64,000 nt of DNA from Tubulanus polymorphus (lineage: Eukaryota > Animalia > Nemertea): positions 16,128,655 through 16,192,654 of the forward strand of contig NC_134033.1 in NCBI RefSeq assembly GCF_964204645.1. The letters are read 5' to 3'. Below, in pieces: positions 15,570 through 36,081 of this stretch (positions are counted from its first letter, which is position 1; each line of letters begins with the position of its first letter). The notes under the pieces are model-generated. The model worked only from the letters and a program-made list of their open reading frames with translations, ran no database searches and was not told where the DNA came from. Position numbers and translations under genes: made by a program.

Positions 15570-16000
15570 TTTGATGATGTCATAATGGAATTTGTGTAGA
15601 GACAGACATCATTATTCGGAGGTGTTATAGATAACACGGTATTTTGATGATGTCATTAGGGGACTCTTGTGGAGGTAGCCATCTTTATTCGGATGTTCTT
15701 TAATTTGATGACGTCATAAGTAGAATGCCCCGGAGGCAGCCATCTTTATGCAGAGGTTCTTAGATAACTGGGTATTTTGATGATGTCATTAGGGGACTCT
15801 CGTGGAGGTAGCCATCTTTATTGGGAGGTTCTTCAATTTGATGATGTCATAAGGGGACTCTCGTGGAGGTAGCCATCTTTATTGCGAGATTCTTCAATTT
15901 GATGACGTCATAAGGGGACTCTCGTTGAGGTAGCCATCTTAATTGGGATGAGGTTCTTCAATTTGATGACGTCATAAGGGGGACTCACGTGGAGGTAGAC
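15570..16000. repeat. Intronic ~60/73-bp tandem repeat, ~7 copies
   Basis: Unit TTTGATGA(T/C)GTCAT(A/T)AGGGGACTCTCGTGGAGGTAGCCATCTTTATT...; it runs right up to the donor of exon 16013-16060. Confidence 0.9.
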
Positions 16001-16012
16001 TATATAGCTTAC

Positions 16013-19000
16013 CGACACAGTTACCGTGGAAAACCTGTGAACCAGGAGGACAGTAGATTCCTGCGAACAAAAGCAAAATAAAATATCGATAAACGAAGAA
16101 ATACATGATTATGATTGATGGGATTTTTCTCCCGGGAATTTGTTGTCGAGTTTGCGGCCAAATCACCTTCAAACACGAGCTCAGAGTTATTAACTATCAT
16201 AAAAACAGCTGCCTTTTAAAACAAACACACACGCGACGGATTAATGACCAAATTACTAAACGCTGAACAGAAGAAAAAACGTTGAAATAACAAGTCGTTT
16301 TAGGGAACTAATCAGAAACAAAGCAGATACTGCGTACAAATTTACGAATTTTAACAGAAGTCAATGGCGTCGCAGGAGATCTTATAAGTGAAGACGCTCA
16401 ACGCGTGTTCAATGCAGTGTTCGGGCGCCACAATTGACCTTGAACTTGAATTACGGATGTGGATTCGTATCTACCGGAACTGAATTAAGTGTAGACGCTA
16501 CTCGAGTACGAAAAGTGGTTTTCGTCGAACCGGCCGCGTCCATCGACACACGGGTCTGACGAGCTCGTTTACACGTAGCTAATATAACGATTTCCGCAAT
16601 GCAGTGTTAGTCTTAATAAGCTCCTTCAAATATTCAGCGTAAACCGCGCAAAAAAAACGCTCAAGCGGAGTTGGGCGAGTTATAAATAAACGTACAAAGT
16701 AGTTATATTTTTAAGGAGGAACAGTCGTGACGCGTCGACAGTAGTTAGACTTATGAATAATTGAATAATTTAAGCGTTGGAACGAACGACCGACGCCATT
16801 AGAGATAAGTCTGAGAGAACTCTCCGTCAGAAATTGATCGCTCTGAGAATCTCCGCGCAGAGATCGGTTTAATTGCCTTATTATGTTTATAGCTGAATCG
16901 AAAAAAAGTCGAACGTAGATAAGATATAACGTCTGACGCGTTTCAGAACTCGACTGCCATGTATTGATAACAGATCTTAACGGCGAGATTGAGTATGACG
17001 GGTTGTTAAGATTTGATTCTCAGAGTTCTGATTGAAAATGATCTGATCTTGATAGTTGTCGACGAAAATCCCCTGGCTAAAAAAATCAAATGAAATTTAC
17101 CAACCAAATAAATAACAGGGACAATCCCTATTTTAAGATTAAAAAAACCCCATAGGTAAAAATCCCCAAATCTTCGAATTAGGTCTTAATCTGATGAATT
17201 TGAACTAGACTTACGAATGCATCTGCCGTGAGAAACGAAGAATCCGGTGGGACAGTGAGACACTGAAAATAAACAACCACATCGTATAGATCACACAATG
17301 AAATCTATAAGGACCGGGTAAATCGAACTCTATCGTACAGAAAGTAATTTGTAAGGTTTTACTGGCATGTAATACATTGACGTAGCTGTAGCAATCATAT
17401 AAGGTTGGAAACCCGTCAATAAAATATTTTTTCTTTTCTCTTCATAAACCCCAAAGGTTTGCAGATCAATGATACTGCTTGGCAGAAAACCCATTATCGC
17501 TGCTTTGCGGCTATATTCAGGTTTGCTAGGGTCTACGCAGGAGCTGTGGTTCTATTTACTATACTTACATTCACAACGTCCGTTTTCAAAAGAGTAGCCG
17601 ACCGGACAATGCATAACTGAAAATCGATTCAAGAAGAACATATCGTTAGGATAGGATACACCGAGCGGACATCTGCGATTATGATGAGAGGAAGTACGAC
17701 TTGAAACAAAACTTGTTTCCTTTAACAAAACGGACAAAATCTAGCGTGAATTCGTCAAAACATGTCGTGTACCCAGGAGTCGTTAACTTATCGCGTGCCC
17801 CGCGATTTTTACTTATAAAATCCGATTTTGGAAAAAGTGAAGGAAAAATCGTGGCAAACACAAGCTATTATCCGACTTTCGCCGATCCGACATACGCGAG
17901 ATTACTGTATCAACAAATATTTAAGGAAAATATGGCGGAATGTTATGATTCGATAAGGATTTATTTTCTTTTCGTAAATCAGATGGTTTAACGCTAACCT
18001 CCACACTTGTTGTCGACTCGCACGAACGTATCCGGACACGACTTCACTATTATTGAAAACAACACGCAAATAATCAAATTAGAAATTAGAATTTCAGAAT
18101 TTCTTCTAAACGGCGTTGGTTAGGCATACGTACGTTTACATTGGAAGCCGACACTGATATATCCGGGCGGACAATTCAATTCTGTAATATACGATATGAA
18201 TAATTTATGAAAAAAAGAATTTCCTCCAGGTGTCAGTTTCACAAAAACGATATCTCATAAATCGATTTAGATAAATTGAATTTATGAAAAAATTGAATCT
18301 ATAAATAGTTGAACCTTCTTATGAAACTAGAACCCGGTAGAAGTAGAATTTGCATATTAATGCATACATTTGCATACGATTAAAAGCTGAAAATGGTTGT
18401 TGTCATTTTCTCTAGATGCCAGATTGCATCGCGCGCCTAGATATCTATACTAATACTATTTTCTGATAAACTTACTGAAACATTTTCCGTTCCTGTTCTC
18501 CCAGCCTTTCGGGCAAGTTTTCGCTGCAAAAAAAAAACAACGATCGAAATTTACCGAATCACGAAACGTAGAAATAGGAAACTTATCGACGAATCGTCAT
18601 GGAATATTTCCTATATTATTCACATCTATTTATCATTACAAAAAGTGAAAATAGGAAACTTATTCAAATTTAAGTTTCCTATTTTCACTATGAAAACTTG
18701 TTTTGGAATATTTCTTTATAACATTTATATCTATATAGTTATAGATATAAATGTTATAAAGAAATATTCAAAAACAAGTTTTCATGAATAGATCTATTCG
18801 TTCTAGGCTCAGTATGGCTCGGTAGGCTCAATAACTTATCTCACAAATTAAGACTGTAGTCTCAGAGAGTTCGTGTTTTACACCTTAACTTAACGTACCC
18901 TTGCAATGCCCGTCTTGATGAATGTAGCCGACCGGGCAGTGAACCCCTGTAATACAAAATACAGCAATTAATTAGGCTTTTCTTTTTCTAGCCCTGGTTT

Positions 19001-22000
19001 TCCCATTTATAGCTCTTGGGGAAATTTGCCTCGTCGATTGTACAACGAACAGCCGCATGTTTTCGCATAGATCAATCATTTACTTACTATAGCAGTTACC
19101 GTTTTCTAGTACAAAACCAGCGGGACATTGACGAACTGTAGAAATAGAAAATTACTCTTTTCGTACAAGAATCAAGTAGAAGGCATCAGATGTTTTATAG
19201 TCTAGAAACCTACTGTGGCAGTTGTGGGAGTGGGGGACGGGCGTGTGCCAATCTGAACACATTACATCTGCAAAACGAATGGATAAAGTTGAAAAAGTCG
19301 AACTAAACTTCGTTTTCGGTGAATTCAAGATCAGATAAATAACTTACGTAGGCATTTTCCATCGCTCTTCCAATACCCAGCAGGACAGTGAATCACTGTG
19401 AAAAAGAAATCCAATGTGAATTTACGTGAATTGAACTCTTACCATGGAAATTTCAGAATAAATGGAAATTATTTTTGGAACAAAGACACCTACGGACGCA
19501 ATGGGAGTCGACTGCTTTGTAACCAGGCGGACAGTATAACGCTAAAACCATCGAACGAAATAAAATCATTAAAACAAATTGAATAGAATTATTTCGTGGA
19601 CAATAAACAAACGCGTTTTGAATGCTTTAAATACCTTCGCAGTGTCCTAATTTCCTAACCTCACCGGCCGGACATGTTCCTGCGATAGACAGACATTTTC
19701 AAAGTATCACCAATATGTATTAAAAAGACCCAAAATATTGAATATAACGCTCAAGATTGGGTAGAATTTTTCGCATCTTCAGAGATCTATTTTAATAACA
19801 ATAAATCCCCGAAGATGTCCTGGGTAGATGCATTCCACCCGAAACATCAGGGGCCGGTTTTACTGACTGGTATTACCTTCAACCCGGAGGCTAACTCAAT
19901 TCATTATCAATTGAGTTAGCCCCGGGCTAAAAGGTAATACCAGTCTATAAAACCGGCCTCAGTACAACAGATTTTCGTCGTTAAATCTTTAATATTGTGG
20001 GTGCTTTGAATAGACTACACAGATTGCGACTTTGTTAAGTGATTTTGGCATCAAAATATCATCAAACATTCTCAAGAAAATTCATTCATGAAATGAAGTT
20101 CTAAATATCGCGGGTCGAACTCACTGCTGCATTGTTGGCCGATCTTCTCATAACCGGGCGGACATTTCTGAACTGTAAATTGAGAGAACATATTTTTCTA
20201 TCACGTATTTCAAGCTGTATTTTCAAAAAAGAAACCTTTCATATACTAACTCTTGTTTTTCTGGTCATTCCACCTGATGATGGCTGTTAGTCAACAGCCG
20301 AAACGTTGTGGTTTCGTAATAATAAATTTGATAGTATAATTTCAAATTCGAAGTGTGGGATTTCTTCATTTATCTCATTGTCATGTTGTATACTTACGTT
20401 CACAGTTTTGGTTGACAATGACGTAACCCCACGGGCAGTTCAAACCTTAAACATATGAAGCAAACATAGAAGAGAAAACATAGTCTGAGAAATAACACAT
20501 CTACAGGTCTAGTTAACATTATCTCAGTGACCTGTTACTCAAAAGTTGAATATATGGAAGAAGGTTGGTACCAGGGAGGTCTCTGGGGCCGGTTGCATAG
20601 TCATGGCTTAGACTTAAGACCAGTCTAAGACCAACTTACTTCCATAGCAAATCTAACAACTTCAGACCAGTCTTACGATTTAAGACCATTTTTGGTGCAA
20701 CTGGCACCAGGAGTTTACCAATGGATATTTGGCATTTTAGTGGAAATCCTTTTGAGCAACCTGGCCTAGAGTTCGAAATATGTAATTCAAGCAATTTTCT
20801 CCACAGGAAAAACTTACGGACGCATCGATTTCCATCTTTCGTGAAACCGCGAGGACAACTTTCCACTGGATGAGAAAGTAGAAAGAATTCATTGGGATTC
20901 GAACCCAATTGAAATATTTCACAAAAAAATCCGCTATCGAAAATAGAAAACATTCTATTATTACTTACATTCACAGGTTTTATTGTGAGGGTCGGGTATG
21001 TATCTATGGGGACATTCCAAAACTGAAAATAAAAAAGAAAAGTCGAGGTCTTCAAAACCATCATCTGTGATTCTTATTGCTAATCTCGCTTTCTCGTCTG
21101 GATGGTAACGTAGCAACTGTTTCGGTGATCAGCGCCTAGCAACGCCGAACTCAGAACTACCGAAAATGAAAGGCGCAGCAAAATGACTGGGAAATCCAGA
21201 CCGATTCGAATCCAGAGAAAACAACTCTCAGATACAGCCCTGTTAGTTCCCAGAAAACGAAAAACATGCGATGAGTCTATGGACGAGATTTGTATCGGGA
21301 CGAAACGGCACCGACAAGACGAGACGGTGAAAGATATCCACATTTACCCGAATCCGGACCGCACAATCTGTTCGCTTTATGACCAGTGGAACGTGCCATG
21401 CGCTAGGCGGTCGCCTCTGAGAGGTACACAGTGCACATCTATAGCTGTAAGTATGTCATATAGAGGTCACGTGACGTCATATTTTGTTTTCCGGTCGGTT
21501 CAATTCAATTTATCTTCAAACAAAGCATGATACAAGATTTGTCAACCAGTGCTGGAGTCTTTCCGCCATACAAAGTAACAAAAGATATTCTGTGGATTTT
21601 CAAACTTCGTGGTCTGTCATGTCAGACTCTCGTAGTTTGTACTCTCCCAGTTCCACAGTTGTGAGTTAGAGTTAACTCTTGAGTTAAAATCAATTCATTT
21701 TCAATCTCTGAGTCAAATTCAACTCACAACCTGTGGAAGTGCTGGATCCCGATCAATTTTTGCAAGAGGCGCAGTGGCCGAGTGGGTTAAGCCGCCGGTC
21801 ACTGGTCTCGTCAATCCAGGGTTTATGGGTTCAAACCCTGGTGGCGACAGAGTTTCTCGGTCGAAGGTTCTTCTCTGGTCTCTCCCCCATTGGGAAAAAG
21901 AAACGTCGAACCGCTCGTCATGCCCTACGTGGCGCTTAGCGGGTTGAGGGTGTTAAAAAAAAAATCATTTATTGCTGTTATGTACGGCAAGTTTTTAGCA

Positions 22001-25000
22001 CTGGTTAGCAAATAAACTACTATGACGTCACGTGTCAGACCACACTATACATAAAGGATATTAGGAAAACAGAGCCATTTGTAATTTGTATTTTCAATCA
22101 TCGGATATATTCACATTTCAAAATCTCTTCTCGAATATTCTGTCGTCGCAGGTACAGGCGGTTATAGCTTCGATTTTTAAACCGGTAAACCGTTGGAACA
22201 GCGACGATTTGGATCTAATTCTCTGCGACGGACACAAACTACACGTATCGGCGATCAGACAACTGAACGACCGATGTATCTATCCGCAGGGGAACTTCTT
22301 AATGCCCAGCGATATACCGACTGAGTTGATCACAACGGGCGTACCCCCGGGAAAAAAGGTTTTGATAAGCGTCGTTCATTAAGTGCTGATGCCAGTTTTA
22401 TACAGTTCGAGTTGGATAATGTAGCCTAACCTACACATTGGTCGACAAAAACTATAAAACTGGGTTCAGCGGTAAATTACAGAAAACATAACAAATGAGT
22501 CTTTTTCAAGCCAATTTCGAATGAGTTTCGCAGTTGTGTTAAATTTGAACTCAGGATCGAGTTTCCCACTGTTGTGAGTTAGAGTAAACTCATAACTCTG
22601 GATCCAGTCCCACAGTTGGATCCACTGTTAAAGCTAGCTCTGAGACGAGCGAAGTCCGCTGAACTCACAACTGTGTACTAGGCCTGGGCAGAATTGTCTA
22701 ATTCCATAAATAAAATCTAGGTGGTATTTGGCGAAGGTTTGGTCGGAATGATTTCATTAGAGGAGGTCGCTGAAGAGATCGCCGATTTCGTGGACACATT
22801 CCCGTGCGCTTTCCGGAAGGCGATGGCTCCTAAATACATAGGTATTTCATCCGTTGATGCGTTCTTCAGAATTTCGAATCTTTGATTGATTGGAACAAGC
22901 TCTAACTGGTTCTCCTCTCTAGGTGCCATTTTGACGGCGAATGACGAATCGGTGGCCATATTGAAATCACGTGATCGACGCTATCCGTATATGGTGTTAG
23001 ACTCGCACAGACGAGATCGTCACGGATTGTGTAGACCGACCGGTCACGCGGTGTTACTCGCGTTCGAATCGACCGATCATCTTATCAGGTAATCAGACAT
23101 TCGATTTAAGATTTAAGATAATTCAAGGCTGCAGACTGGATACCTATGGTGTTGTGCTACGAACGTGTCACTGAAGCCGGGATCACACGGGCATTTTTGG
23201 CCCGGGCCAAATTTTAGCACGGTTCAAATTATTGCGTGTGAAATGCAACTGGTTCCGCGTTTTCTGCGTGGTTTGCGTGTGTCTGTGAACGCGTTCTCTA
23301 AATAAGCGCGAGCCAAATTTGACTCGGGCCCGATCCGTGCAAGTTTGGCTCATGCCAAATCGTCTCCGTGTGATCGCGGCTTCGTCGAATATATCTGATT
23401 CGGTTTGTATCTGCCAGCCATTTTGTTTCAGATATTACCGGGAACTGGACGAAGAAAACCGACGGCAATTTCAACTGACCCCCGTCTTGATAGCAGACGA
23501 TTTCGACGAGAATGAGTGAAAAAATAGAGAAAAAATCAAAAACATGTTTCGTTTTCAAATAATTCGAGGAGCCTGGTATAAAATCGACAAACGTGAGAAC
23601 GGGTAGTTCTGTGTAGGTTTTAACTGATTCTGTTTGAAATTACGAGCTTTCGCTACTACTGCATAGTAGCTTTATTGACCTAAATCTACTAGTTTATTAC
23701 ACAGTTATATCTGTCTTTATGTGTATCGATTTCAAATGATTCACTGAACTCACCGACACAGTCGTTTCCTTTCATTTCAAATCCAACTGGACATTGCACT
23801 CCTGAAATTAAAAAAAAAAAATGTTTATAGTATTAAGGCATCGTATTTCGAAGAATTCATTCTCATTACTTTCAAGCCTAACCCGTTCCCTTTCAAGCCT
23901 AACCCGTTCCCTATAGCACCCCTCTACTTACTGTGACATCTCATGCCGACCAAATGGTACCCAGGAGGACACATAATCTCTGAAAATGGTTCACGATGGT
24001 TTTGTAAATGAAAAAAACGTAGGATTTGATATCGATGATTTACTACTAACAGTGACACAACTTACTCAAACAGCGGTTCTTGTGAAGTTTATATCCTTGC
24101 GGGCACCGGATTCCTGATTAGAAAACAAAGAACATTAATATCTCAGAAATGATTTCTAATATCGTTCAAAACTCAACGCAATTTCTCCGATTCAGCTGAA
24201 ATACTCACGGATACACTTGTTGCCTTTGATCAATTTGAAATCTTTCGGGCAAATTATTTCTAGAAAGAATAGTACGTGATGAAACGTTACATTCAGTCTC
24301 ATTTCATTGTCTATAACAAATCCTTTCCGAAAAGACGGAGACATCATAAAAATTTTATTTTATTTTCCGACTGATTTGAAATTAGTTTTTACGATTTCAC
24401 TTACTGTAACATTTATCGTTGAGTTTTGTATATTCCTTTGGACAATGGTCAACTGAAATCAAATATATAAATCAATCTTGAATTACGACCAAGCGATGAT
24501 CCTAAGGATTGAACAATACACAAATATTACATTCTGTTTCTAGAAAAAGATAAAAGGAATTCGTGTGAAAACTTACGAACGCATCTGTCATCTTTAAGTA
24601 CGTAATATTTCGGACAAGTTATTTCTGAAAAAAAAATGAAACAATATTCAGTGATTTATGTGTTCATAACGATACAACAGCGCACAGTTGGGTCCCGCAA
24701 TAAAATAATCACTCAGGAACGCTTGAAGAAAAACGCTTAGTTGGAGGGGAAAAGCTAAGACAGCATTGATGTTCCGAAAGTCTTTGAAAATGTTTGAAAA
24801 TGGCTCATAATACTTGAGTGGAAACGTCTGTAGTTTTTTGTTTTTCTATTTCATCGTGGGTTTTCCATCAAATAAGAATATAGACACTTACGTATGCATC
24901 TGTGACCAATTTTCTTGTAACCTTTCGGGCAATCCTTCACTGAAAATGACGATGATTATACCGAAATAAGTGAGAAGGAAATGAATTCTAGATAACTCAG

Positions 25001-28000
25001 AATCGTGAAACTGGGTCTTGGCGGAAGGAATTAATGATCAGATACTCACGGATACATTCCCCGTTGACCAGTTGTGATCCAGGCGGACATTCGGTCCTGA
25101 TACAAGTTTCGTTCACTTTCTTGTAGCCAGTTGGGCAGTGTATAACTACAATACAAACAATATACACGAACGATATTACTTTCATTATAAATTCCTGAGT
25201 TGCTCAACTCTACAGGAAACTCTTACTGTGACAAATTTCAATATCTACATAATATAATTCACATGGGTTTCACGGCATTTGTAATATTTCACCAATTTTT
25301 AAATTCTGAACTGTAGATGTTACTGAGACAATTAATGATCTTCAACGTTTTTCTAAATTTTGTTTTCAAGAAGATGAGTCTACACAAGCTACCGTGTGTC
25401 TACTTACGTATACAGATTTTCCCATCTTTGCTCAGCATGTGACTCGGCGGACAGACATAACCTTAAAAGTAAATGAAAATAACGGGGAATGTTTTTTACC
25501 TCAGTAAATCTGTTGACCGTACTTTTAAAAATCATGATCAGGCTAACCACAACAGACCTAGGATATCAACTGATTACAAATTTCATTGCTGTTTACAAAA
25601 TGACCCGGGAGATTAGGAGAAACAACCTTTCAATTTTTTCTAGCCTTATTATAATATTTTCTAAGAAGTGATCAGGGTTGTTCTATATCTGATACTCACG
25701 TGTACATTTACCGTGTTCCATTACATACGACTCGGGACAAATCGCTGAAAAATGCGCATAGAATATTCATACGTTATGAAATGAACAATGTTTCATGTGA
25801 ACAGAATTTCAGAATGATATAATATACACTTACGCGCGCATTTGGCACCCTTGATTGCGTAACCGACAGGACATTTTATGCCTAGAATCAGAATCAGGTG
25901 ATATTAGAAATAAACTATTTTCTATTTATGTCGAGGTTATTGAGTGATCGGTGAAAACCAGGAACCAGTTTCAGCAGTTCTTGGTTAGAATTTGACCCGC
26001 GCGTTGAGATATTATTGGAATAAACGAATTTTAACACCAAAAAAGTCAAAAAGTGGTCGTAAATCTTATCTGAAGATTGATCTTATGTCATTAGATTGGC
26101 TATAAAACTAAAATGAGCTCAGACTGGTCACAAGTTGTTAGATTAGCTATAGGGTCTTAGACCGGCCTTTAGTAGTTAGTTTGGTTATAGAACTAAAATG
26201 AGTTTGTAAAATGGAGTTGTTAGATTGGTTGTAGAACCATTATGAGCTTAGACCGGTCTTAAGTTGTTAGATTGGTTGTTGAACCATTATGAGCTTAGAC
26301 TGGTCTTAAGTTGTTAGATTGGTTGTTGAACCATTATGAGCTTAGACTGGTCTTAAGTTGTTAGATTAGTTGTTGAACCATTATGAGCTTAGACTGGTCT
26401 TAAGTTGTTAGATTAGTTGTTGAACCATTATGAGCTTAGACTGGTCTTAAGTTGTTAGATTAGTTGTTGAACCATTATGAGCTTAGACTGGTCTTAAGTT
26501 GTTAGATTAGTTGTTGAACCATTATGAGCTTAGACTGGTCTTAAGTTGTTAGATTAGTTGTTGAACCATTATGAGCTTAGACTGGTCTTAAGTTGTTAGA
26601 TTAGTTGTTGAACCATTATGAGCTTAGACTGGTCTTAAGTTGTTAGATTAGTTGTTGAACCATTATGAGCTTAGAGACTGGTCTTAAGTTGTTAGATTAG
26701 TTGTTGAACCATTATGAGCTTAGACTGGTCTTAAGTTGTTAGATTGGTTGTTGAACCATTATGAGCTTAGACTGGTCTTAAGTTGTTAGATTAGTTGTTG
26801 AACCATTATGAGCTTAGACTGGTCTTAAGTTGTTAGATTAGTTGTTGAACCATTATGAGCTTAGACTGGTCTTAAGTTGCTAGATTAGTTGTTGAACCAT
26901 TATGAGCTTAGACTGGTCTTAAGTTGTTAGATTAGTTGTTGAACCATTATGAGCTTAGACTGGTCTTAAGTTGTTAGATTGGTTGTTGAACCATTATGAG
27001 CTTAGACTGGTCTTAAGTTGTTAGATTAGTTGTTGAACCATTATGAGCTTAGACTGGTCTTAAGTTGTTAGATTAGTTGTTGAACCATTATGAGCTTAGA
27101 CTGGCTCTAAATTGTTATATCGACTATAGAACTAATATGCCCTAAACTGATCTTGAATCTAAGCCATGAATGTACAACTGGCACTCCTCGTTTTTGAAAC
27201 TTACGGACACATTTTCCCATAACGCTTTGGAATCCTTCCGGACAAATTCCTGCAATCAAAAATTACAATCAACATCTGTTAATCGATGTTAATTAATGTT
27301 AATAAATTCGTAAATGTAGTTCAACTGAGATATAAATGGATGAATGAATGAATGAATGAATGAATGAGTTGATATTGTGAAGAAAATCTTCCCCGAGATT
27401 TCTTACGTACGTGTACATCTTCCTGTAGAGTTCAACTTCTGTCCTTTCGGGCAAGAGATACCTACAAATAGAACGCCAGTAAATAATAGCAATTCCGTTG
27501 TTGGTCAATTTCGATAGATATTGTTCAGATGATTTCTCTTAGTACGTACGGACGCAAGTTTGACCATTTTTCGTGTAACCAGGTGGACAGAAAACAACTG
27601 TGGAGAAACGATGAAAAAAACATAATAATACCCAGCCAGACTTTTTTATCAGTCAATAGTACAAAAATACCACTCAGGGGTCAGTTACTCAAAATTTGGT
27701 TATAGTTAACCAGCGGACAGTTGACTTAGTCACAATTTAAAGTTCATTGTTACTATGGTATTTATCCGCCGGTTTCCTTTAACTAACTTTCGAGCAACTG
27801 ACACCGGAATTGTTTCATGAACTAAATTCATGAGCTACGTTTGAGGATTTAAACATATGTTCTACCATTTTCAAAGCTACATTAGGATTAGATGATAGTA
27901 TCTTAAGTTGTTCATGAGTCAGGTTTGTTTGGAATACACACATTATGCACATCCATTAAAAAAGATGATGTTCTACTCACGTGTGCAGTTGCCCTGTTCG

Positions 28001-31000
28001 TTTAACTTGTAGCCTTTTCGACAAATATATCCTTGATTTAGAAATAGAGAAAAACATAAAATATGATTATCACATATATCTATTTATCATATCGTCACAC
28101 CTTATTACATTGATCTCATGATCATGTTGAACTTACGGATACATTTGCCGTCTTTTTGATGATACATTTTCGGACAGCGAACTGCAATGGAATGGATATG
28201 ATCGGATTATTACGCATAGACGCAAACCGAGTCCTTCCTTATCAAGGAAGGCAAGTAAGTGAAGCATTACAGGAGATGACTATTAAGATTACGTCGAAAG
28301 ATAGATATTACCTCAAGGAAATTTTCGGACCCTTTTTATTCTTAGGTGTAGGATTTTATAAAACCCTACCAACCCATAGTCCAATCCCTCGTTACCAAGA
28401 TATTTCAGAAACTATGGTAATCGTAAACTATCAAAACTATCTCGGACATGCTCTTACTTACCCACACAACTCTGTCCCATTAGGAAATATCCCTTGGGGC
28501 ATTTTGTAACTGAAAAAGAACAGAAATAAATTCGAATCTGAAATTGTAAAGGGTCTTAAGTTTCAGTGGTCAGAGGTTATTTAGGATATACTAACGGATG
28601 CATTTTTTGCCGATTTTCTTGTAGCCTTCCGGACAAACGACTAAAACATACGACAAAAATCAACCATTTATCATAATTATTTCAATCTAATCAGAATTCA
28701 TTTCTATGCATTGATTTTCAACCTAACGCGCTAACCTGTACATTTTCCTTTGATAAGAACCATTCCCTTCTTGCACGAGTATCCTAGGAAATAGATAATA
28801 GAAATATTCTAGTACATTGTACAAGCAACAAAAAAGGACTTTTAACCCTATCCAGCTAAAATAGGAGTCCTTTATGATCGAGGAGCTCTGGTCTGACATT
28901 TCCCGAGCCGATTGGGGTAAAAGATCTGTGGCTACTTACGCACGCATTTGTTATCGGAAATCCTATATCCCTTCGGACACGAGTGAACTGGATAATTAAA
29001 AGATAACAAAATCATTAATTTGATTTTGACATCGAAAAAAACTACATAGATAAAGTTAGTAGAGTTTGTTTAAAAACTTACGAACACATCTGTAATCTTT
29101 GGTTAGGATGTAGCCTTGTGGACAAGTGTAGTCTACAAAATAATTTCGTTAGATTTTGTTTATAAAGGAGAAGTGATGGAGGAACCGTGTTAACCTGGTG
29201 TCGAATCGGTAAAACGTAAAGACAGGATTGGTTATTTAGTTTGATTTAAGATACGAGCTTTTAGCTACTAATATAGCTTCATCAGGCAAATGAGCTATTG
29301 AGCTTCTAAAATACAAATTAATACCGAAGATTCTATCTTAGATTTTATAAAACGAATTGATTCTATTTTTTCAAAGTTGATGTTAGAACCTGAAAGTTAA
29401 CTTACGAACACAGAACGCGTTCTTCGGCATGTAACCTACGGGGCATTTGGCTGAAAAATTCAAATCATATGCGCATAGATTATGTAGATACGCATATCGT
29501 CAAGAACAAGTGATAACTGTATAAGTGAAAGGTTTAAGTTTAATATGTCGAATGTGAACAATACTGTGACGTCATTTGCCGAGTCTCGGAATGTTTCGTC
29601 TCTGAAGTTTTATTTTTTCAATCTAATGAGATCAGATGAATACTTTGTGATAGTTTCGACTCACCGACGCATTTGGTTCCCATTAAATGATGACCTTTAG
29701 CGCAGATGACTCTGATGCACTGTTTACCGAACTGTTTGAACCCAACCGGACATTGAGTAACTAGAAAAACAAAAATATGTATCACGACAATATGTTATGT
29801 TATGAATTTTATCGCATTAAATTAGAGATTAATTGTAAGTAATCTAATGCAGACACATTTTAAAGTGTCCTATTCAGTGCCAGTCATTGCTTTAAGGCAC
29901 TTGCAACATTTAGAAGTATATTTACAGCCAAACCCGCTTAATCCGGATCGGCTTAATCAGATTTTAGTTCATTCTGGACATTTATTTGCGGTCCGTTTGT
30001 TCATTAAAATACGAGAAAATGACTTTCTATCCGGATTTTCCGTAAACCGGACGAATTTCGTTCGTCCCAAACGATCCGAATTAAGCGGATTCTACTGTTT
30101 TCAAAAATCCTATATTTGTTAGAAACAGTACCGGTATAAAACATAACTAAATAAGCCATTATGCCTGGCTAAAATCATAAGTCTTGAACAATTAAAAATG
30201 TGTATCATTTCTAAATCATTTTAAAGTTTATAGGACCACATTCTCCCCCTCACTTACTGATACATTTTCCTTCTTTCGTCATTCCTTGAGGACAGTGATA
30301 ATCTGAAAATTTAGAAATATATCTTTCACCTCTTTTGTTCCGCTTTCAAACACGTGGCACGCAAAATATTTGGGATAAGATATCGATACTTACGGATACA
30401 TTTTCCGGCCAGAAGTTGGAATTTTTCCGGGCAGGCAACGACTGAAAAGTGCATGAAATATTTCATCAGCAGAAAGAATTGAAATGAGATTATTTTATGG
30501 GAATATAAGTGTAGCTCTTGATACTTACGGGTACATTTTCCAGTTGAATCTAATTTGTATCCGGGATGGCAGGTGTATCTGATACAGATACCGTCGCTGA
30601 TTCTGTATCCGGGCGGACAGGTCACTGTGTAATAATAAAACCATCGAACATTTATGAATTCATACTCAGTGAAATATACAGGGTTGAATGAGACTGAATC
30701 GAGTACAACTTCCTTGTGGGGGATTTACTTTAATATGTTTCCACAGTATATCAGAAAAGAAAGATCCTCCCTGTTGACTTTGAACAGTAAACCTTGCATA
30801 AGTCGGATCGGCGAAAGTCGGATTAATCGTTTGTATCGGATGAATATTGATTTTCCCCATTTTCCCGTCTATTTTTCAATTCATAATCCAAAGTCGAGTA
30901 CTTTTATTGGCCACAAAATAAAAAACTATAAAAACCGAAATTTTGAGTGATATATTCTTCCCATTGCAGTTTGATTCCTCTTCCAGGCCTGTCCCGGGTT

Positions 31001-34000
31001 TGAAATCGACGATACCTATCAGCGGTCGTTATTTCAGTTGTGGTTATTGTATTAGAATAAGAAATGAACCCAAAATATTTCAGCGTTTTTGAATCATTTC
31101 TTGTTCCGACGTTACGCAACGTTTAAATGTGCTACAATTTTCGATACTTACTGACACATTTCTCGTTCAGCACAACGTAACCTTTCGGACATTTTACACC
31201 TAAAAAACAGATATAATCCATTAATTCAATGGGTAAAGCGATAAATGTTGAAAACGTCGCTAGATTTTTTAAAAGCTTTCGAAATCTTTGAGACACGATT
31301 GCTGTGACTGTTTCGGGCAAACTTTCACTTACGCACGCATCTTCCAGCACGTTTTGTGTAACCTTTCGGGCAGACAGCTGAAAATGGAACAAATTTTCCG
31401 ATGAGTCTGATAACATCCAATGTCTATTTCAAGTAAAGCGAGACGGATAGTACTTTAACAAAATTCTCTATTTGAAGTACAAGCTTTAGCCTCATCGGGT
31501 AATTAATGAGGTGAATTATTTCAACCCTATTTGTATGTCGGGTGCCATCGTCAATTTTGCGGAACCTTCGAAACGATATAAAATCTTTTAGAAATGGAAT
31601 GCTTTAGTCCAGCTTCCAATCAGCGCTGGTAAAATTGTAAGACCTATATACGGATATGTACTACTGATATTCACTGAGTTATGGCACCTAACACTCGTTC
31701 AAACAAGTTGAAATAGTTCATGGACACGAATCCAATTTCAAATCGATAATCGATCACTTACAAACACATTTTCCATCTTTCGTTACAACTTCTCCTTTCG
31801 AACAGCTATGCACTGCAAATTAAATAACAAATAGTTTGAAATAGATTTGTTTCTCGTTACAAACAATCAGCTCGAAACCGAAGAAAAACTTGTTCAACTC
31901 ACGGACGCATTTGTCTCCAACTTTGATGTAACCACGCGGGCAGTCGACCACTAGAAATGATATCATAAATTTGCATAAATTGTTGCGTAAAATAATAAAT
32001 TATCATAAATTGTTACTTAATAGGGGACTCTATACATGATGAGGGGAGAGGAGTTGTGTTAATCTGTTAATTAACCATCAAAGTAATATCTTTCTTTTAT
32101 GTTTACTGTTGTGTCATGTAAAAGTTCAAATGAATTACGCCATATTTTGAAATAGAACTTACGAATGCACTTTTTGCCTTCTAGTTTATAGTTGTGCGGA
32201 CACAGCATTTCTGTAAATACGTACGTGAAAAATAGAACATTGTCATAACATTGAGGATTCTGGATTATAATCATAATTCGTAGTTCATGAAATACGCCAC
32301 GTCAAGCCAAGTTTTACAAAAAAAGGTTAAAATCATAAATCTATGCGGGGTGAACTGAATTGATAATGAAATAAAAGTTGATTGATCGTGTTGAAATTTT
32401 CTTAACACTAGGACCATGTTTAAAGCTGTTTCTAATTTTCTTTTTTAAATCTTCATGAAAAATAAATTAAAGATATAAATCACTCACTGATACAATTCTG
32501 TGCGAATTTCACGTAGCCTTTTGGACAAATAACTGTAAAAATACAAAAATGGCGTAAAAATCAGAAAAAATCATCGATCGCGACATCTATCGTTCATCGA
32601 ACGCAATTTACTAACCGATACAGTGCCCGTCAGCAGCCATTCTAAAACCTTTCGGACACGAGTAACCTAGCGATAGAAATTCAGAAATCATCACTGAATT
32701 ATATACCGAGGTATTCTTATTTTCGAAGTATAGACACCGGTAGAGCTGGAATACTCACGAATACATTTGTTGTCTTTTTTCATATAACCCTCCGGGCAGG
32801 AACAAACTATCGATTGAGATAAGACATCAAAAAATGAAAATAGAATAATGCACCGATGAAAATAGAATATAGTTAATCACTGTAAAATATTTCTTTCAAA
32901 TTTATGTTGGTTCGCTAGATATTCATCATATGTTATAATATTTTGTCTGCAATCTTGCTGGTTTTCTACTTCTTAATTGCAAATAAACTATTATTATTAT
33001 GTATTTTACTTACGGACGCATTTGTTGCCGACCAATTTGTAATGCTCAGGACAAACCATTTCTATTTACATAAAAGTAGAAACGCATTTCAAAGATTCTT
33101 CGTTGATTTCTGAATTTTCGAAAGTTCAGTTTTCGAGTTGTACATGGATTTTGCTTTTGAGTAAATTGGATTTTTATCGGCTGAACTTACGTAAACAGGT
33201 GTTCCCACGTTTGATAAAACCGGGTGGACATTTTACGGCTAAAAACAAAACAAGAATTAAATTATCGAATTAAAAGACACAACATTTCTACAGAGACCAT
33301 TGTCAGGTGTAAAATATATTCAAAGACTCTCTCAAACTCTGTTGGTCGTCTCCAGAGAGAGTCCAAAACTTTAGGAGTTCGTCTTTTGATTTCTTATTTC
33401 AATTCTTGATAAAATATATATCGTTCTTAATCGTTTGAATTTGGTTTTAATGGGTTTTAATCTTAACTCATGAAATTAATATCAGTAATTTTTTCATAGA
33501 TCTTACCTAGACAGGCAGTGATTTTATCCAGCGGGCACTTATCACCTAAAGACAAATATATTACGTTTACATATACTACAGGAAGATTATATAAAATCCC
33601 ACACTAAGAATAAATAAGGAGTCAGAATTCTTCCTTGAATAGCCATATTCAAGAAAAGGATAAAAAAAATCCAAAATAATTCCTTGAGCTTGTATCTATT
33701 CAACGTTTCGACTATATCCTAAAAGTCATCTTAAAGAACCGATAAGGAAAACAAAAATTCCTAAATGTTTCCTTGAGCTTTGAGTTTATTCAGTGTTTCG
33801 ATAACATCCTAATTAATCATCGTTAGGAGAATGGCTCTTTTAGTCTAAGTGAGGAATTCCGGGATTCTATCATTCATCGTTTCATCGATTAGTGTTTCGT
33901 CGATAGCTATAACTGTAAGGTTTATTGATTACCCTTTGCTTTAAAACTAAGACTAAAACACGGTCCCGGTTACTTACGATGACAGCGAGTTTTTATCTGT

Positions 34001-34235
34001 ACAAACCCGGTCGTACAATGCACTTCTGTAAACAGGAAAATGAAACGAGGAAATCACCGTAAATTCGCAAGATTCGAACGATATTATTAAGATAATATGT
34101 ATAAAGATATGATCATTAAGATAACATTTCATTGTTTGTTCGACTTTTTGAATTTTTGAAAATTGTTTGATTACTTACTCATGCATTTTGCTCCTACTCT
34201 GTGAGTTTTATGCGGGCAATGCCAGTTTTGAGTCG
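16013..34235 (-). CDS. Array of 56 phase-1/phase-1 micro-exons encoding 58 CPxG(Y/F)xxxx(x)xxC two-cysteine modules (2811 nt, 937 codons)
   Basis: Exons, each with AG/GT ends and a length that is a multiple of 3: 34179-34235, 33978-34025, 33507-33545, 33191-33238, 33014-33061, 32759-32806, 32616-32666, 32488-32532, 32163-32210, 31903-31950, 31762-31812, 31333-31377, 31152-31199, 30529-30624, 30394-30441, 30258-30302, 29665-29760, 29406-29450, 29082-29132, 28940-28987, 28736-28783, 28596-28640, 28462-28509, 28137-28181, 27981-28031, 27550-27597, 27411-27461, 27205-27249, 25834-25881, 25700-25744, 25408-25461, 25227-25244, 25050-25145, 24892-24939, 24577-24624, 24405-24452, 24209-24259, 24066-24113, 23932-23979, 23754-23801, 20969-21022, 20818-20865, 20398-20445, 20125-20172, 19635-19679, 19494-19541, 19348-19395, 19214-19267, 19088-19135, 18899-18946, 18476-18523, 18134-18181, 17999-18046, 17569-17616, 17215-17262, 16013-16060. 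Examples: VKCPPGFIKRGNTCL, VCPEGYKKIGKKCI, IYCPPGSQVFHGNCV. Confidence 0.9.
18644..18785. repeat. Two abutting AT-rich palindromes
   Basis: 18644-18689 has perfect 19-bp arms and an 8-nt loop. 18690-18785 has 46-bp arms with one mismatch and a 4-nt loop. Confidence 0.9.
19850..19960. mobile_element. Fully palindromic ~110-bp MITE (Tourist/PIF-like termini)
   Basis: GGGGCCGGTTTTA-GACTGGTATTACCTT...GGCTAACTCAATT / AATTGAGTTAGCC...AAGGTAATACCAGTC-TAAAACCGGCC, with TCA on both flanks. Confidence 0.75.
20270..20311 (+). ncRNA. Minimal type I hammerhead ribozyme (Penelope/retrozyme type)
   Basis: CCAC-CUGAUGA-U-GGCUGUU(AGUC)AACAGCC-GAAA-CG-UU|GUGG: intact core, 7-bp stem II, 4-bp stem I, vestigial palindromic stem III, and AATAAA just downstream. 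Confidence 0.8.
20585..20708. mobile_element. MITE family B (CTTAGACTGGTCTTAAG core)
   Basis: TIRs GGGGCCGGTTGCA / TGCAACTGGCACC; homologous to 43155-43294, 57206-57345 and 25961-27184. Confidence 0.75.
21183..23519 (+). CDS. Nested antisense gene: herpesvirus-tegument-like (peptidase C76/VTD-type) deubiquitinase, 281 aa, 5 exons
   Basis: Exons 21183-21446, 22152-22358, 22721-22841, 22923-23088 and 23432-23519 are all GT-AG (phases 0,0,1,2) and give 846 nt of open frame. Motifs: SLYDQ..RGTQC84TSIAVQAVI..WNSDDLDLILCDGHKLH..GAILT..SVAI..YMVLD224SH226RRDRHG..GHAVLLAFESTDHLIRY..QFQLTPV. Confidence 0.82.
21766..21964 (+). mobile_element. tRNA-derived SINE in intron 1 of the nested gene
   Basis: A box TGGCCGAGTGG, B box GGTTCAAACCC, a non-tRNA body and an A10 tail. 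Confidence 0.75.
23174..23382. mobile_element. MITE family A copy in intron 4 of the nested gene
   Basis: TIRs AAGCCGGGATCACACGG / CCGTGTGATCGCGGCTT; homologous to 726-999. Confidence 0.75.
25961..27184. mobile_element. MITE family B copy expanded by an internal satellite
   Basis: GGAACCAGTT left end, AAAAGTGGTCGTAAATCTTA and TCTAAGCCATGA...CAACTGGCAC right end match family B and enclose the 47-bp array. Confidence 0.65.
26234..27116. repeat. 47-bp tandem repeat, ~18.5 near-identical copies
   Basis: Unit GAACCATTATGAGCTTAGACTGGTCTTAAGTTGTTAGATT(A/G)GTTGTT; starts at 26234, 26281, 26328 ... 27082, with one 2-bp insertion near 26673. Confidence 0.97.
29925..30097. mobile_element. Tc1/pogo-type MITE
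   Basis: TA|CAGCCAAACCCGCTTAATCCGGATC...GATCCGAATTAAGCGGATTCTACTG imperfect TIRs. Other elements with similar termini lie near 17870-17909 and 30785-30840. Confidence 0.6.
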
Positions 34236-34849: not shown

Positions 34850-34921
34850 GGGGGTATAGCTCAGCGGTAGAGCATTCGACTGCAGATCGAGAGGTCCCTG
34901 GTTCAAGTCCGGGTGCCCCCT
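34850..34921 (+). tRNA. trnC-GCA: tRNA-Cys(GCA)
   Basis: GGGGGTATAGCTCAGCGGTAGAGCATTCGACTGCAGATCGAGAGGTCCCTGGTTCAAGTCCGGGTGCCCCCT: canonical cloverleaf, GCA anticodon, T5 Pol III terminator downstream. Confidence 0.97.
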
Positions 34922-35523
34922 CAATTCTTTTAATTAGCTTTTTATCCAGTTACTTGTTTCTATCGAAACATACTTCCTGTTTTTTTTCTTGTTTCTTGAC
35001 GTGCTTTTATCATAACGTTGGTATGTGCAACGAGGGTTGGGGGTATAAATAGGGGGTTTCTTACTGGTGGTTAAGGATGGGAGGTGAATGCAAGAGTGAC
35101 GTGTTGTATAAGTATATATATATATATCACGCAGTAGTGAAATAAAGTTAGTTGAGTATATAGAGAAAAATCGTTATACGTTGAATCGATTGAGTGGTCC
35201 AAGAAGCCCGGTAATATTTTCGTGTTAAAATTACAGTATTTTGTATAGATGTATGCTTTGTCATAAAGGATATACAGAAAGATAGTTTGCTTTCCAAATT
35301 TTCAAGTTAGCATACATTTGCATTTATTGAGCACTCGTTAGAGATTATGATATGCAAATTTATGCGTGACGTTTATTCGAAATATTATTGTTTCTACGGC
35401 TCCGATTGTTAATGATATTCATGCAATTTACAACCGATGTCGTAAAAAGATCAATAATACATCGATAAAACGAATGGAAATTTTCATTTTAAAATTTTCA
35501 AACATCTGGCACGGTTTATAGAA

Positions 35524-35595
35524 GGGGGTATAGCTCAGCGGTAGAGCATTCGACTGCAGATCGAGAGGTCCCTGGTTCAAGTCCGGGTGCCCCCT
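35524..35595 (+). tRNA. trnC-GCA: tRNA-Cys(GCA), identical second copy
   Basis: 72 nt identical to 34850-34921, with T-tracts downstream. Confidence 0.97.
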
Positions 35596-36081
35596 TCCGA
35601 AACTTTTCATTTTTTCCCCAGTTTTTGTTTGTTTTAGTTTTTAATGAATTTCGGTTGTTACAGGGTTCAGGGCTCAGTGAGTAAGGTAGAGTTAAAAGTG
35701 GCAGCAGAAATCCGATGCTACTCAACCTTCAGAAAACCAGGGCTCACGTCCTTAAGAGAATGATCTTCAATCATCAGACCGGATTTAGAGTTTTAGGTCT
35801 CAAATTGTAACGGTTTGACTATTGATGTCCTAAATCATACGACTTGTCTAAAGTTGTTTGACTAAGGGACTTATCGAATGGTCAAGAGATGACGTTAAGT
35901 TATCCAAGACCGGTCTGAAATCTAAGCCTTGAATGCAACTAGCACCAGAAGTCGCGTGTTCCCAAAAAAGCAAAATGAAATAAACATAAAACGAAAGGAC
36001 GGATATCGTTTACAAAATTTCTTCTTATATTTTGTAACATCAGACAATTTTTTTTCACTCGATTCAAAAAAAGAAATAAAC

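Follow-up and report, generated by a model that had tools for sequence, protein, structure and literature searches.

A long intron of a micro-exon gene in the nemertean Tubulanus polymorphus holds, on the opposite strand, five exons that join into an open frame of the VTD family of deubiquitinases, which raises the question of whether this frame is a working gene of the host, a passenger of a mobile element or a recent relic. The locus lies in a stretch of 64,000 nt (contig NC_134033.1 of assembly GCF_964204645.1, positions 16,128,655 to 16,192,654, forward strand), hereafter called the window, which is animal-type genomic DNA with a GC content of ~40%. Genes within genes are common, as more than one tenth of mammalian genes host one according to the accessible part of PMC11694760. 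An original prediction, made from the letters of the window, had described an intact gene related to the herpesvirus tegument deubiquitinases, and our analysis finds the feature to be real and its deubiquitinase function plausible. We consider it probable that this open VTD-family frame, with its Gln, Cys and Asp-x-His residues intact, is a transcribed and spliced host gene that was domesticated from a transposon, and we predict that it encodes an active deubiquitinase.

An open frame of five exons within a host intron

When joined across GT-AG introns, the five plus-strand exons (Table 1) give a stop-free frame of 281 codons followed by a stop codon, which runs through 843 coding nt without a stop or frameshift and lies antisense within the host intron. 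The uninterrupted open reading frame (ORF) of 281 amino acids (aa) claimed by the original prediction was thus reproduced at the same coordinates, and its placement was borne out as well: the host intron (21023-23753) measures 2731 nt and is the longest of the 32 gaps among the 33 listed micro-exons (17215-34025), the runner-up having 1529 nt and the host introns near the nested gene 86-145 nt. The residues that had been named, i.e. Q68, GTQC84, W103-x4-LDLIL-x2-G-x2-L, D224-S-H226 and the C-terminal QFQLTPV, were all located as claimed, and the motif behind the His takes the exact form G232-x5-G238-x-AVLL-x-F.

To judge the splice junctions, homology was used in place of RNA: for each junction, all joins up to 45 nt from either boundary that kept the frame and held no stop were scored against the family profile described below. 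The GT-AG joins of introns 1 to 4 ranked 1 of 2684, 21 of 1078, 8 of 2207 and 1 of 1439, respectively; by this homology measure the splice joins coincide with the best homology joins, and only the donor of intron 2 is ambiguous. The alternative donors of exon 2 (GT at 22341, 22359, 22371 and 22374) all keep the frame and give 275, 281, 285 and 286 aa with profile scores of 98.9, 101.8, 103.0 and 99.8 bits in the same order (a spread of ~4 bits), so that the length of the protein is uncertain by a few residues, and the acceptor at 22720 is common to the four best GT-AG joins of intron 2. Furthermore, when the read-through of intron 3 (27 codons) was aligned by MAFFT without guidance, each of the 32 relatives received a gap of ~24 columns there. 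On a splice-signal matrix trained on 49 host micro-exons, donor 1 does well, as do acceptors 3 and 4, and donors 2-4 are poor at the intronic positions, yet AG precedes GT. Two further proposals were set aside. A possible 63-nt in-frame cassette exon in intron 2 (22511-22573, plus strand), with a donor from the end of a miniature inverted-repeat transposable element (MITE), would add 21 residues near the ubiquitin-binding hairpin, and was not adopted, as the relatives have none. The idea that intron 3 arose as a tandem duplicate of the exon sequence beside it was rejected, since 82% of 300 shuffles score equally high.

Family membership and relatives

Relatives were gathered from metagenome contigs by a degenerate pattern of the exon-4 motif, which gave at least 120 loci and which occurs once in the window and in none of 100 shuffles. 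Among the 120 frames listed, 28 extend upstream by 135 residues or more; in 26 of them a QC stands 115-140 residues before the motif, which the pattern does not demand. The family profile was built from 18 non-redundant metagenomic VTD domains, all of which match PF04843 (E-values up to 1, the best 4.5e-13). This profile matches PDB 8ADD, the structure of the zebrafish VTD DrT1-VTD2, at an E-value of 1.1e-24, as well as three herpes large tegument proteins and M48 (7e-10 to 5e-5); its match to the Waddlia VTD is weak. Over aa 58-270, the spliced model reaches 101.8 bits with this profile, the link to Pfam running through the relatives. Because the pattern had been taken from exon 4, the scoring was repeated on the profile columns before the motif only, and this N-terminal half-profile control still gave 52.2 bits, with a maximum of 9.6 bits in 1000 shuffles and -2.4 bits for the reversed sequence. 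An hhalign comparison of the model with the relatives gave 99.4%, and among 2028 six-frame segments of the window the frames of exon 4 (46.6 bits) and exon 2 (19.0 bits) scored highest against the profile, the next reaching 10.9 bits.

C84, D224 and H226 align with invariant columns of the family and, via these, with C322, D451 and H453 of DrT1-VTD2. Q68 and Q83 also occupy invariant Gln columns, and we take the oxyanion Gln to be the one upstream of the Cys. Such an oxyanion Gln has been described as strictly conserved in the VTD family (PMC8123002). In all, 16 of the 19 highly conserved columns are kept versus 28 of the 145 variable ones, as in other intact long-branch members. A papain-like alpha-beta-alpha fold with a flipped triad geometry is typical of the family, whose characterised members cleave ubiquitin. 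At the level of structure, a folded relative (L082; predicted local distance difference test score 80) matches 8ADD at an E-value of 8e-12 and a template modelling score of 0.73. The fold of the gene itself was modelled from a read-through of exon 3, intron 3 and exon 4 with 32 relatives in the alignment, and is of low confidence over the intron. Compared by VIA-align, this exon 3-4 model has 8ADD first of 48,161 chains (Z 5.4, root-mean-square deviation 2.5, 88 residues aligned), a weak and alignment-driven match, and the third and fourth chains are the Waddlia VTD and M48; Foldseek also has 8ADD first, with an E-value of 0.11. The original prediction had assigned the gene to the C76/VTD family of the Asp-x-His type, C76 presumably being the MEROPS label of the herpesvirus large tegument deubiquitinases. 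This assignment is upheld by the profile, PDB and Pfam matches through the relatives, plus the fold of the gene's own C-terminal half with its weak scores, and on these comparisons the family call (VTD / Herpes_teg_N) is right.

VTD genes of such divergence escape standard searches, as no exon alone matched Pfam, PDB or 1.8 billion representatives. Homologue searches gave none among 4 candidates for exon 2 and none among 306 for exons 3-4, and the sole match among the 1.84 billion representatives (P0002), a tetratricopeptide-repeat protein, was discarded as spurious. Viral contigs held nothing for exon 2 and nothing for the exon-4 motif, two viral-contig loci (L001 and L002) being spurious. 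An endogenous herpesvirus origin was rejected in view of the GT-AG introns, the D-S-H motif, and the absence of any viral Pfam family in 20 window segments except for two weak rows at chance level.

The sampled relatives are 22-29% identical to the VTD gene. Of the 53 loci with enough upstream DNA, the domain is contiguous in 42 and carries a deletion in 2, and the 9 without an N-terminal match are truncated or frameshifted; no intron-sized gap was found in the relatives inspected. DUF6570 is present in 5 of 13 long ORFs of relatives, and in the accessible part of PMC11417382 this domain is a marker of HLE2 as defined by HELIANO, sharing frames with RepHel as Herpes_teg_N does. All classifiable relatives look transposon-borne. 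Because the relatives are intronless, and some stand in DUF6570 frames, we regard a transposon domain free of introns as the likely ancestral state and a gain of the introns as likely, in a sample biased toward what the pattern and the metagenomes contain. Seven metagenome loci that fall into neither of the two main groups (L022, L069, L070, L079, L104, L106 and L108) hold intact but divergent VTD domains or motifs, and of these L070 and L079 have frames of 682 and 522 aa without another Pfam match.

Repeats, contig depth and transposon traces

The introns had been described as loaded with repeats while the exons stayed open, and high-copy repeats were indeed confirmed in the introns. The names MITE and SINE (short interspersed nuclear element) were given by eye, on the strength of visible A and B boxes, an A-tail and inverted ends, and Rfam returned a sub-threshold microRNA match on the MITE hairpin and nothing else. 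In run X1, there is one contig per exon block, with a depth of 21-23 versus 21-30 for the neighbours and of thousands in the intron bins; contig depth is not the same as copy number. No transposase remnant was found in the window, as 83 long ORFs of the fetched relative loci match nothing in it outside the VTD gene, and no long inverted pair brackets this gene. The proposal of a stand-alone, single-copy gene with no transposase nearby is consistent with the X1 depth and the 83-ORF search, within one window. Within this window, the locus does not look like an autonomous Helentron (HLE2), of which RepHel/DUF6570 in frame or adjacent, short terminal inverted repeats and multiple copies would be expected.

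The TGACGTCA (CRE-like) palindromes, 7 in the window, include a 14-bp inverted pair in intron 1 (21468-21481 / 22021-22034) and a tandem array in a host intron (15700-15975). Very high-copy repeats also occupy neighbouring host introns at 20466-20739 and 20192-20465. Around 22014-23120, the contigs of runs X2 and X3 begin and end at the same two places. The X1 bin 23480-23753, which holds a hairpin-CTAG site, has a depth of 228 versus ~30 and some low-copy repeat behind the stop codon.

An alternative explanation is that of a spliced accessory gene of a mobile element, be it a non-autonomous Helitron-like element or some other DNA transposon, which still carries the gene or has lately left it behind; the gene would then serve this element and not the host. 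The hairpin with CTAG/T stands 170 nt behind the stop codon on the same strand, as the sole plus-strand case in the window under a lenient rule, and its bin has the raised depth just given; excising 21060-23692 would leave ~100 nt, the size of the neighbouring host introns. The transposon-borne look of the classifiable relatives and the raised depth of X2/X3 over exons 2-4 point the same way. Against this stands that the hairpin-CTAG rule was tuned after the site had been seen, and that such ends yield many false positives. Moreover, Herpes_teg_N is tied to HLE2 in the accessible part of PMC11417382, and a hairpin with CTAG/T fits HLE1 and not the VTD-bearing HLE2 class, since the ends of the latter differ from CTRR. 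The background depth of the X1 exon contigs, the window free of transposase remnants and the relatives without introns argue further against a carried gene, and we regard this explanation as quite unlikely.

The host gene (minus strand, window 15078-62400, reaching beyond 62 kb) encodes a very large, putatively extracellular protein, with about fifty same-phase exons of 45-60 nt that each hold one CPxG[YF]...C unit, and besides these four VWA segments, Pro-rich repeats and two exons rich in Lys and Ser, whose open frames span 1504 and 618 codons. Its symmetric micro-exons would permit combinatorial skipping, and its CPxG[YF]...C repeats gave only a sub-threshold cEGF match in Pfam. Two tRNA-Cys(GCA) genes (34850-34922 and 35523-35598, plus strand) lie on the opposite strand within the host gene, and a G-protein-coupled receptor gene of the rhodopsin family without introns lies at 1236-2381 on the minus strand (Pfam 7tm_1, E-value 1e-52).

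Table 1. Positions of the nested VTD gene, its signals and neighbouring features in the window
Feature	Position	Strand	Description
Exon 1	21183..21446	+	aa 1-88; ATG, 56-aa extension, start of VTD domain with Q68, GTQC84
Basic stretches of exon 1	aa 23-27, aa 41-44	+	PRKRK and KRHR; in the 56-aa N-terminal extension
Intron 1	21447..22151	+	705 nt; GTAAGT...GCAG, phase 0; MITE-like and SINE-like inserts, 14-bp inverted pair
Exon 2	22152..22358	+	aa 89-157; W103, LDLIL, G115, S141-D142-I-P144; 3' end possible at 22340/22358/22370/22373
Intron 2	22359..22720	+	362 nt; weak donor and acceptor; inverted repeat 22378-22477, second MITE-A copy
Exon 3	22721..22841	+	aa 158-197; matches ubiquitin-binding hairpin region and next helix
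Intron 3	22842..22922	+	81 nt, phase 1; keeps the frame, contains one TGA; missing from 32/32 aligned relatives
Exon 4	22923..23088	+	aa 198-253; D224-S-H226, R228, G232, G238, V241-L242
Intron 4	23089..23431	+	343 nt, phase 2; contains MITE-B
Exon 5	23432..23519	+	aa 253-281; terminal strand QFQLTPV, acidic tail, TGA
X-box-like site GTAACG-T-AGCAAC	21105-21117	+	one mismatch to strict consensus; candidate RFX promoter
Second half site AGCAAC	21138-21143	+	with the X-box-like site spans 40-78 nt before ATG
Upstream ORF	21166..21186	+	six codons; TGA overlaps main ATG
MITE-A-like hairpin element	21645..21749		intron 1; very high depth
tRNA-type SINE-like element	21762..21965	+	intron 1; named by eye from A and B boxes and A tail
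MITE-B	23173-23383		intron 4; 18-bp inverted ends
Resemblance to canonical Helitron (HLE1) 3' end, weak	23652..23692	+	7-bp hairpin, then CTAG/T; 170 nt past stop
Host micro-exon upstream of host intron	23754..23801	-	48 nt, CPxG[FY]...C repeat
Host micro-exon downstream of host intron	20969..21022	-	54 nt

Predicted function and known VTD systems

Before the ATG stands a site close to the X-box consensus GTNRCC(N0-3)RGYAAC (given in the accessible part of PMC5752003), together with a second half site. The relaxed pattern occurs 2 times in 64 kb; when the 160 nt upstream were shuffled, it appeared in 23 of 5000 shuffles, or in 4 of 5000 with the second half site, figures that are post hoc and a lead only, because the motif was first spotted by eye. 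As far as the accessible parts of these sources go, functional X-boxes cluster near transcription starts (PMC5838959) and RFX2 drives mouse spermiogenesis (PMC4498915), and the X-box-like site hints at expression in ciliated or male germ cells. In addition, the two basic clusters of the 56-residue extension fit simple patterns of nuclear localization signals, and the product is possibly nuclear.

The known enzymes are described by Erven et al. (PMC9741609), which is cited here and below for the accessible part of its text. In DrT1-VTD2, C322, D451 and H453 are each essential, and D376-E377 bind the ubiquitin tail; all three zebrafish Helitron VTDs favour K48 and K63 chains, and two of these enzymes cleave NEDD8 as well, and a C-terminal alpha9 helix marks K6-specific VTDs (PMC9741609). 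S141-D142 of the nested gene align with D376-E377, and its hairpin loop (aa ~169-181) is suitably placed but acidic, longer and divergent in sequence. Only 8 residues follow the last strand, which seems to leave no room for a K6-type C-terminal helix and points to a K48/K63-type deubiquitinase as the predicted product, and the divergent hairpin leaves its specificity undecided. Such a protein could also be the product of a live gene that is no classical K48-type deubiquitinase, i.e. mainly a deneddylase, an enzyme for another linkage or modifier, or a weak enzyme serving as a ubiquitin-binding scaffold. This would agree with the diverged substrate-contact positions, including a Cys-to-Asp spacing of 140 versus 129 in 8ADD, with the NEDD8 cleavage by two of the three zebrafish enzymes, and with the inactivity of the insect Helitron-derived stand-alone VTDs (PMC9741609). 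However, the triad and the Gln are intact here, unlike in these insect iVTDs, most metagenomic relatives also carry Thr or Ser at the D376 column, and the short C-terminus would speak against K6 specificity, which makes this explanation very improbable in our view.

Several observations weigh against a working, domesticated gene. The upstream ORF of six codons ends on the main ATG, no AATAAA is found between the stop codon and the next host exon (TATAAA at 23577), and the splice signals of intron 2 are weak by the host-trained matrix. The X2 and X3 contigs (one sample) over 22014-23120 are ~2-4x deeper than most neighbours, the fold scores of the gene's own half are weak and driven by the family alignment, and E377, important in DrT1-VTD2, is replaced by Asp, though one herpes tegument chain also has Asp. 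Searches with exon 2, exons 3-4 and the family profile gave no orthologue, i.e. nothing more than 29% identical (114 profile matches among 1568 candidates). In a tree built from the model, 18 locus domains and 33 of these 114 database proteins (those whose domain is nearly complete), the model forms a branch of 2.5 changes per site with no resolved placement, where long branches meet. Given the missing orthologue and the long branch, the conservation of residues may therefore date from the transposon past; besides, nine conserved columns were imposed by the scan pattern, and of the 12 others 9 are kept (S->A88, Y->H119 and E->D142 being changed).

The missing orthologue, the long branch, the weak signals of intron 2 and the lack of a canonical poly(A) signal would also suit a once-spliced gene that is now silent or decaying, its open frame being a recent relic. 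What argues against decay is that 843 coding nt stayed intact while at least 4 repeats landed in the introns, and that the catalytic residues are all retained. The contigs of other samples have 0-1 gap letters over exons 2-4 versus 3-18 in mostly non-coding ones, which is suggestive only; 10 such letters occur in the contig that spans exon 1 and the beginning of intron 1. We hold a relic to be decidedly doubtful.

If the frame is a domesticated host gene, as we prefer, a VTD-coding piece of a Helentron-like element would have landed in a short host intron, with the rest of the transposase lost, and would have been transcribed from a promoter of its own and have gained four spliceosomal introns; repeats would later have settled in these introns, with the exons staying open. 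By analogy to DrT1-VTD2 and M48, D224 would orient H226, H226 would activate C84 and Q68 would stabilise the oxyanion; D142 and the exon-3 hairpin would hold the ubiquitin tail and the Ile44 face, and K48, K63 and K11 chains, perhaps also NEDD8, would be cut. The basic N-terminal stretch may lead the protein into the nucleus, and its targets would be spared from proteasomal decay. Least securely, the RFX site might limit expression to ciliated or male germ cells, in line with the domesticated animal VTDs, which are male-specific (PMC9741609).

A more far-reaching claim, which we think unlikely as it stands, is that a catalytically intact VTD of Helitron type was domesticated independently and became a nuclear deubiquitinase of male germ cells, with four introns and under the control of RFX. 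If true, the Helitron/viral-type subfamily would have its first active stand-alone gene, and spermatogenesis would have recruited VTDs in parallel once more, in addition to ms(3)76Ca, the genes of nematodes and the iVTDs of insects. According to Erven et al., VTDs have been domesticated from transposons many times, the male-specificity of the tamed animal genes is left open, and the stand-alone Helitron-type genes are inactive, the active stand-alone genes belonging to a distant subfamily (PMC9741609). The nested gene fills that gap on paper, being of Helitron type, with an intact triad, a single domain and four introns that its relatives lack, and as it is small and easy to express, it offers a direct test of the domestication idea and of the male-germline pattern.

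Published work already covers the family and its origin from transposons, as well as single-domain VTD genes that were domesticated and the repeated integration of Helitron-derived VTDs in animals (PMC9741609). Neither the nested gene nor any stand-alone VTD from annelids or other spiralians is reported in the accessible literature, and the source data of Erven et al. may list more members. The closest known system is DrT1-VTD2 (a zebrafish Helitron/Helentron HLE2 VTD, PDB 8ADD; Erven et al. 2022, PMC9741609), which shares the profile family, the Gln...QC...D-S-H order and the F/L-D-S-H-x-R motif, and is the top structural match. HLE2 VTDs, on the other hand, are intronless domains in multi-copy RepHel/DUF6570 frames, whereas the nested gene is a lone domain with four introns, a basic N-terminal extension, ~25% identity to the sampled relatives and no adjoining transposase. 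The herpesvirus large tegument deubiquitinases (M48 of murine cytomegalovirus, 2J7Q; BPLF1, UL36 and UL48; PF04843) share the Asp-x-His order and the conserved Gln, but are viral, exceed 2000 residues and have D-P-H, in contrast to a cellular-type, spliced gene with D-S-H in a window without viral context. Drosophila ms(3)76Ca (Dm-VTD) and the nematode single-domain VTD genes are likewise lone domains with an intact triad outside transposons, and provide a model for the likely action of the nested gene; by description they are set apart from it as a separate, very divergent subfamily found only by HHsearch (PMC9741609). As the nested gene reaches 102 bits on a small Helitron-type profile and the Dm-VTD subfamily is very divergent, it likely represents an independent domestication. 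Finally, the insect iVTDs (CG32436 and others) are also Helitron-type VTDs outside transposons (PMC9741609), but lack active-site residues and are often multi-domain, whereas the nested gene keeps all of these residues. Its novelty is thus one of combination, i.e. a Helitron-type VTD with its triad intact, alone, with four introns and nested, within a known enzyme class and not as a new kind of system.

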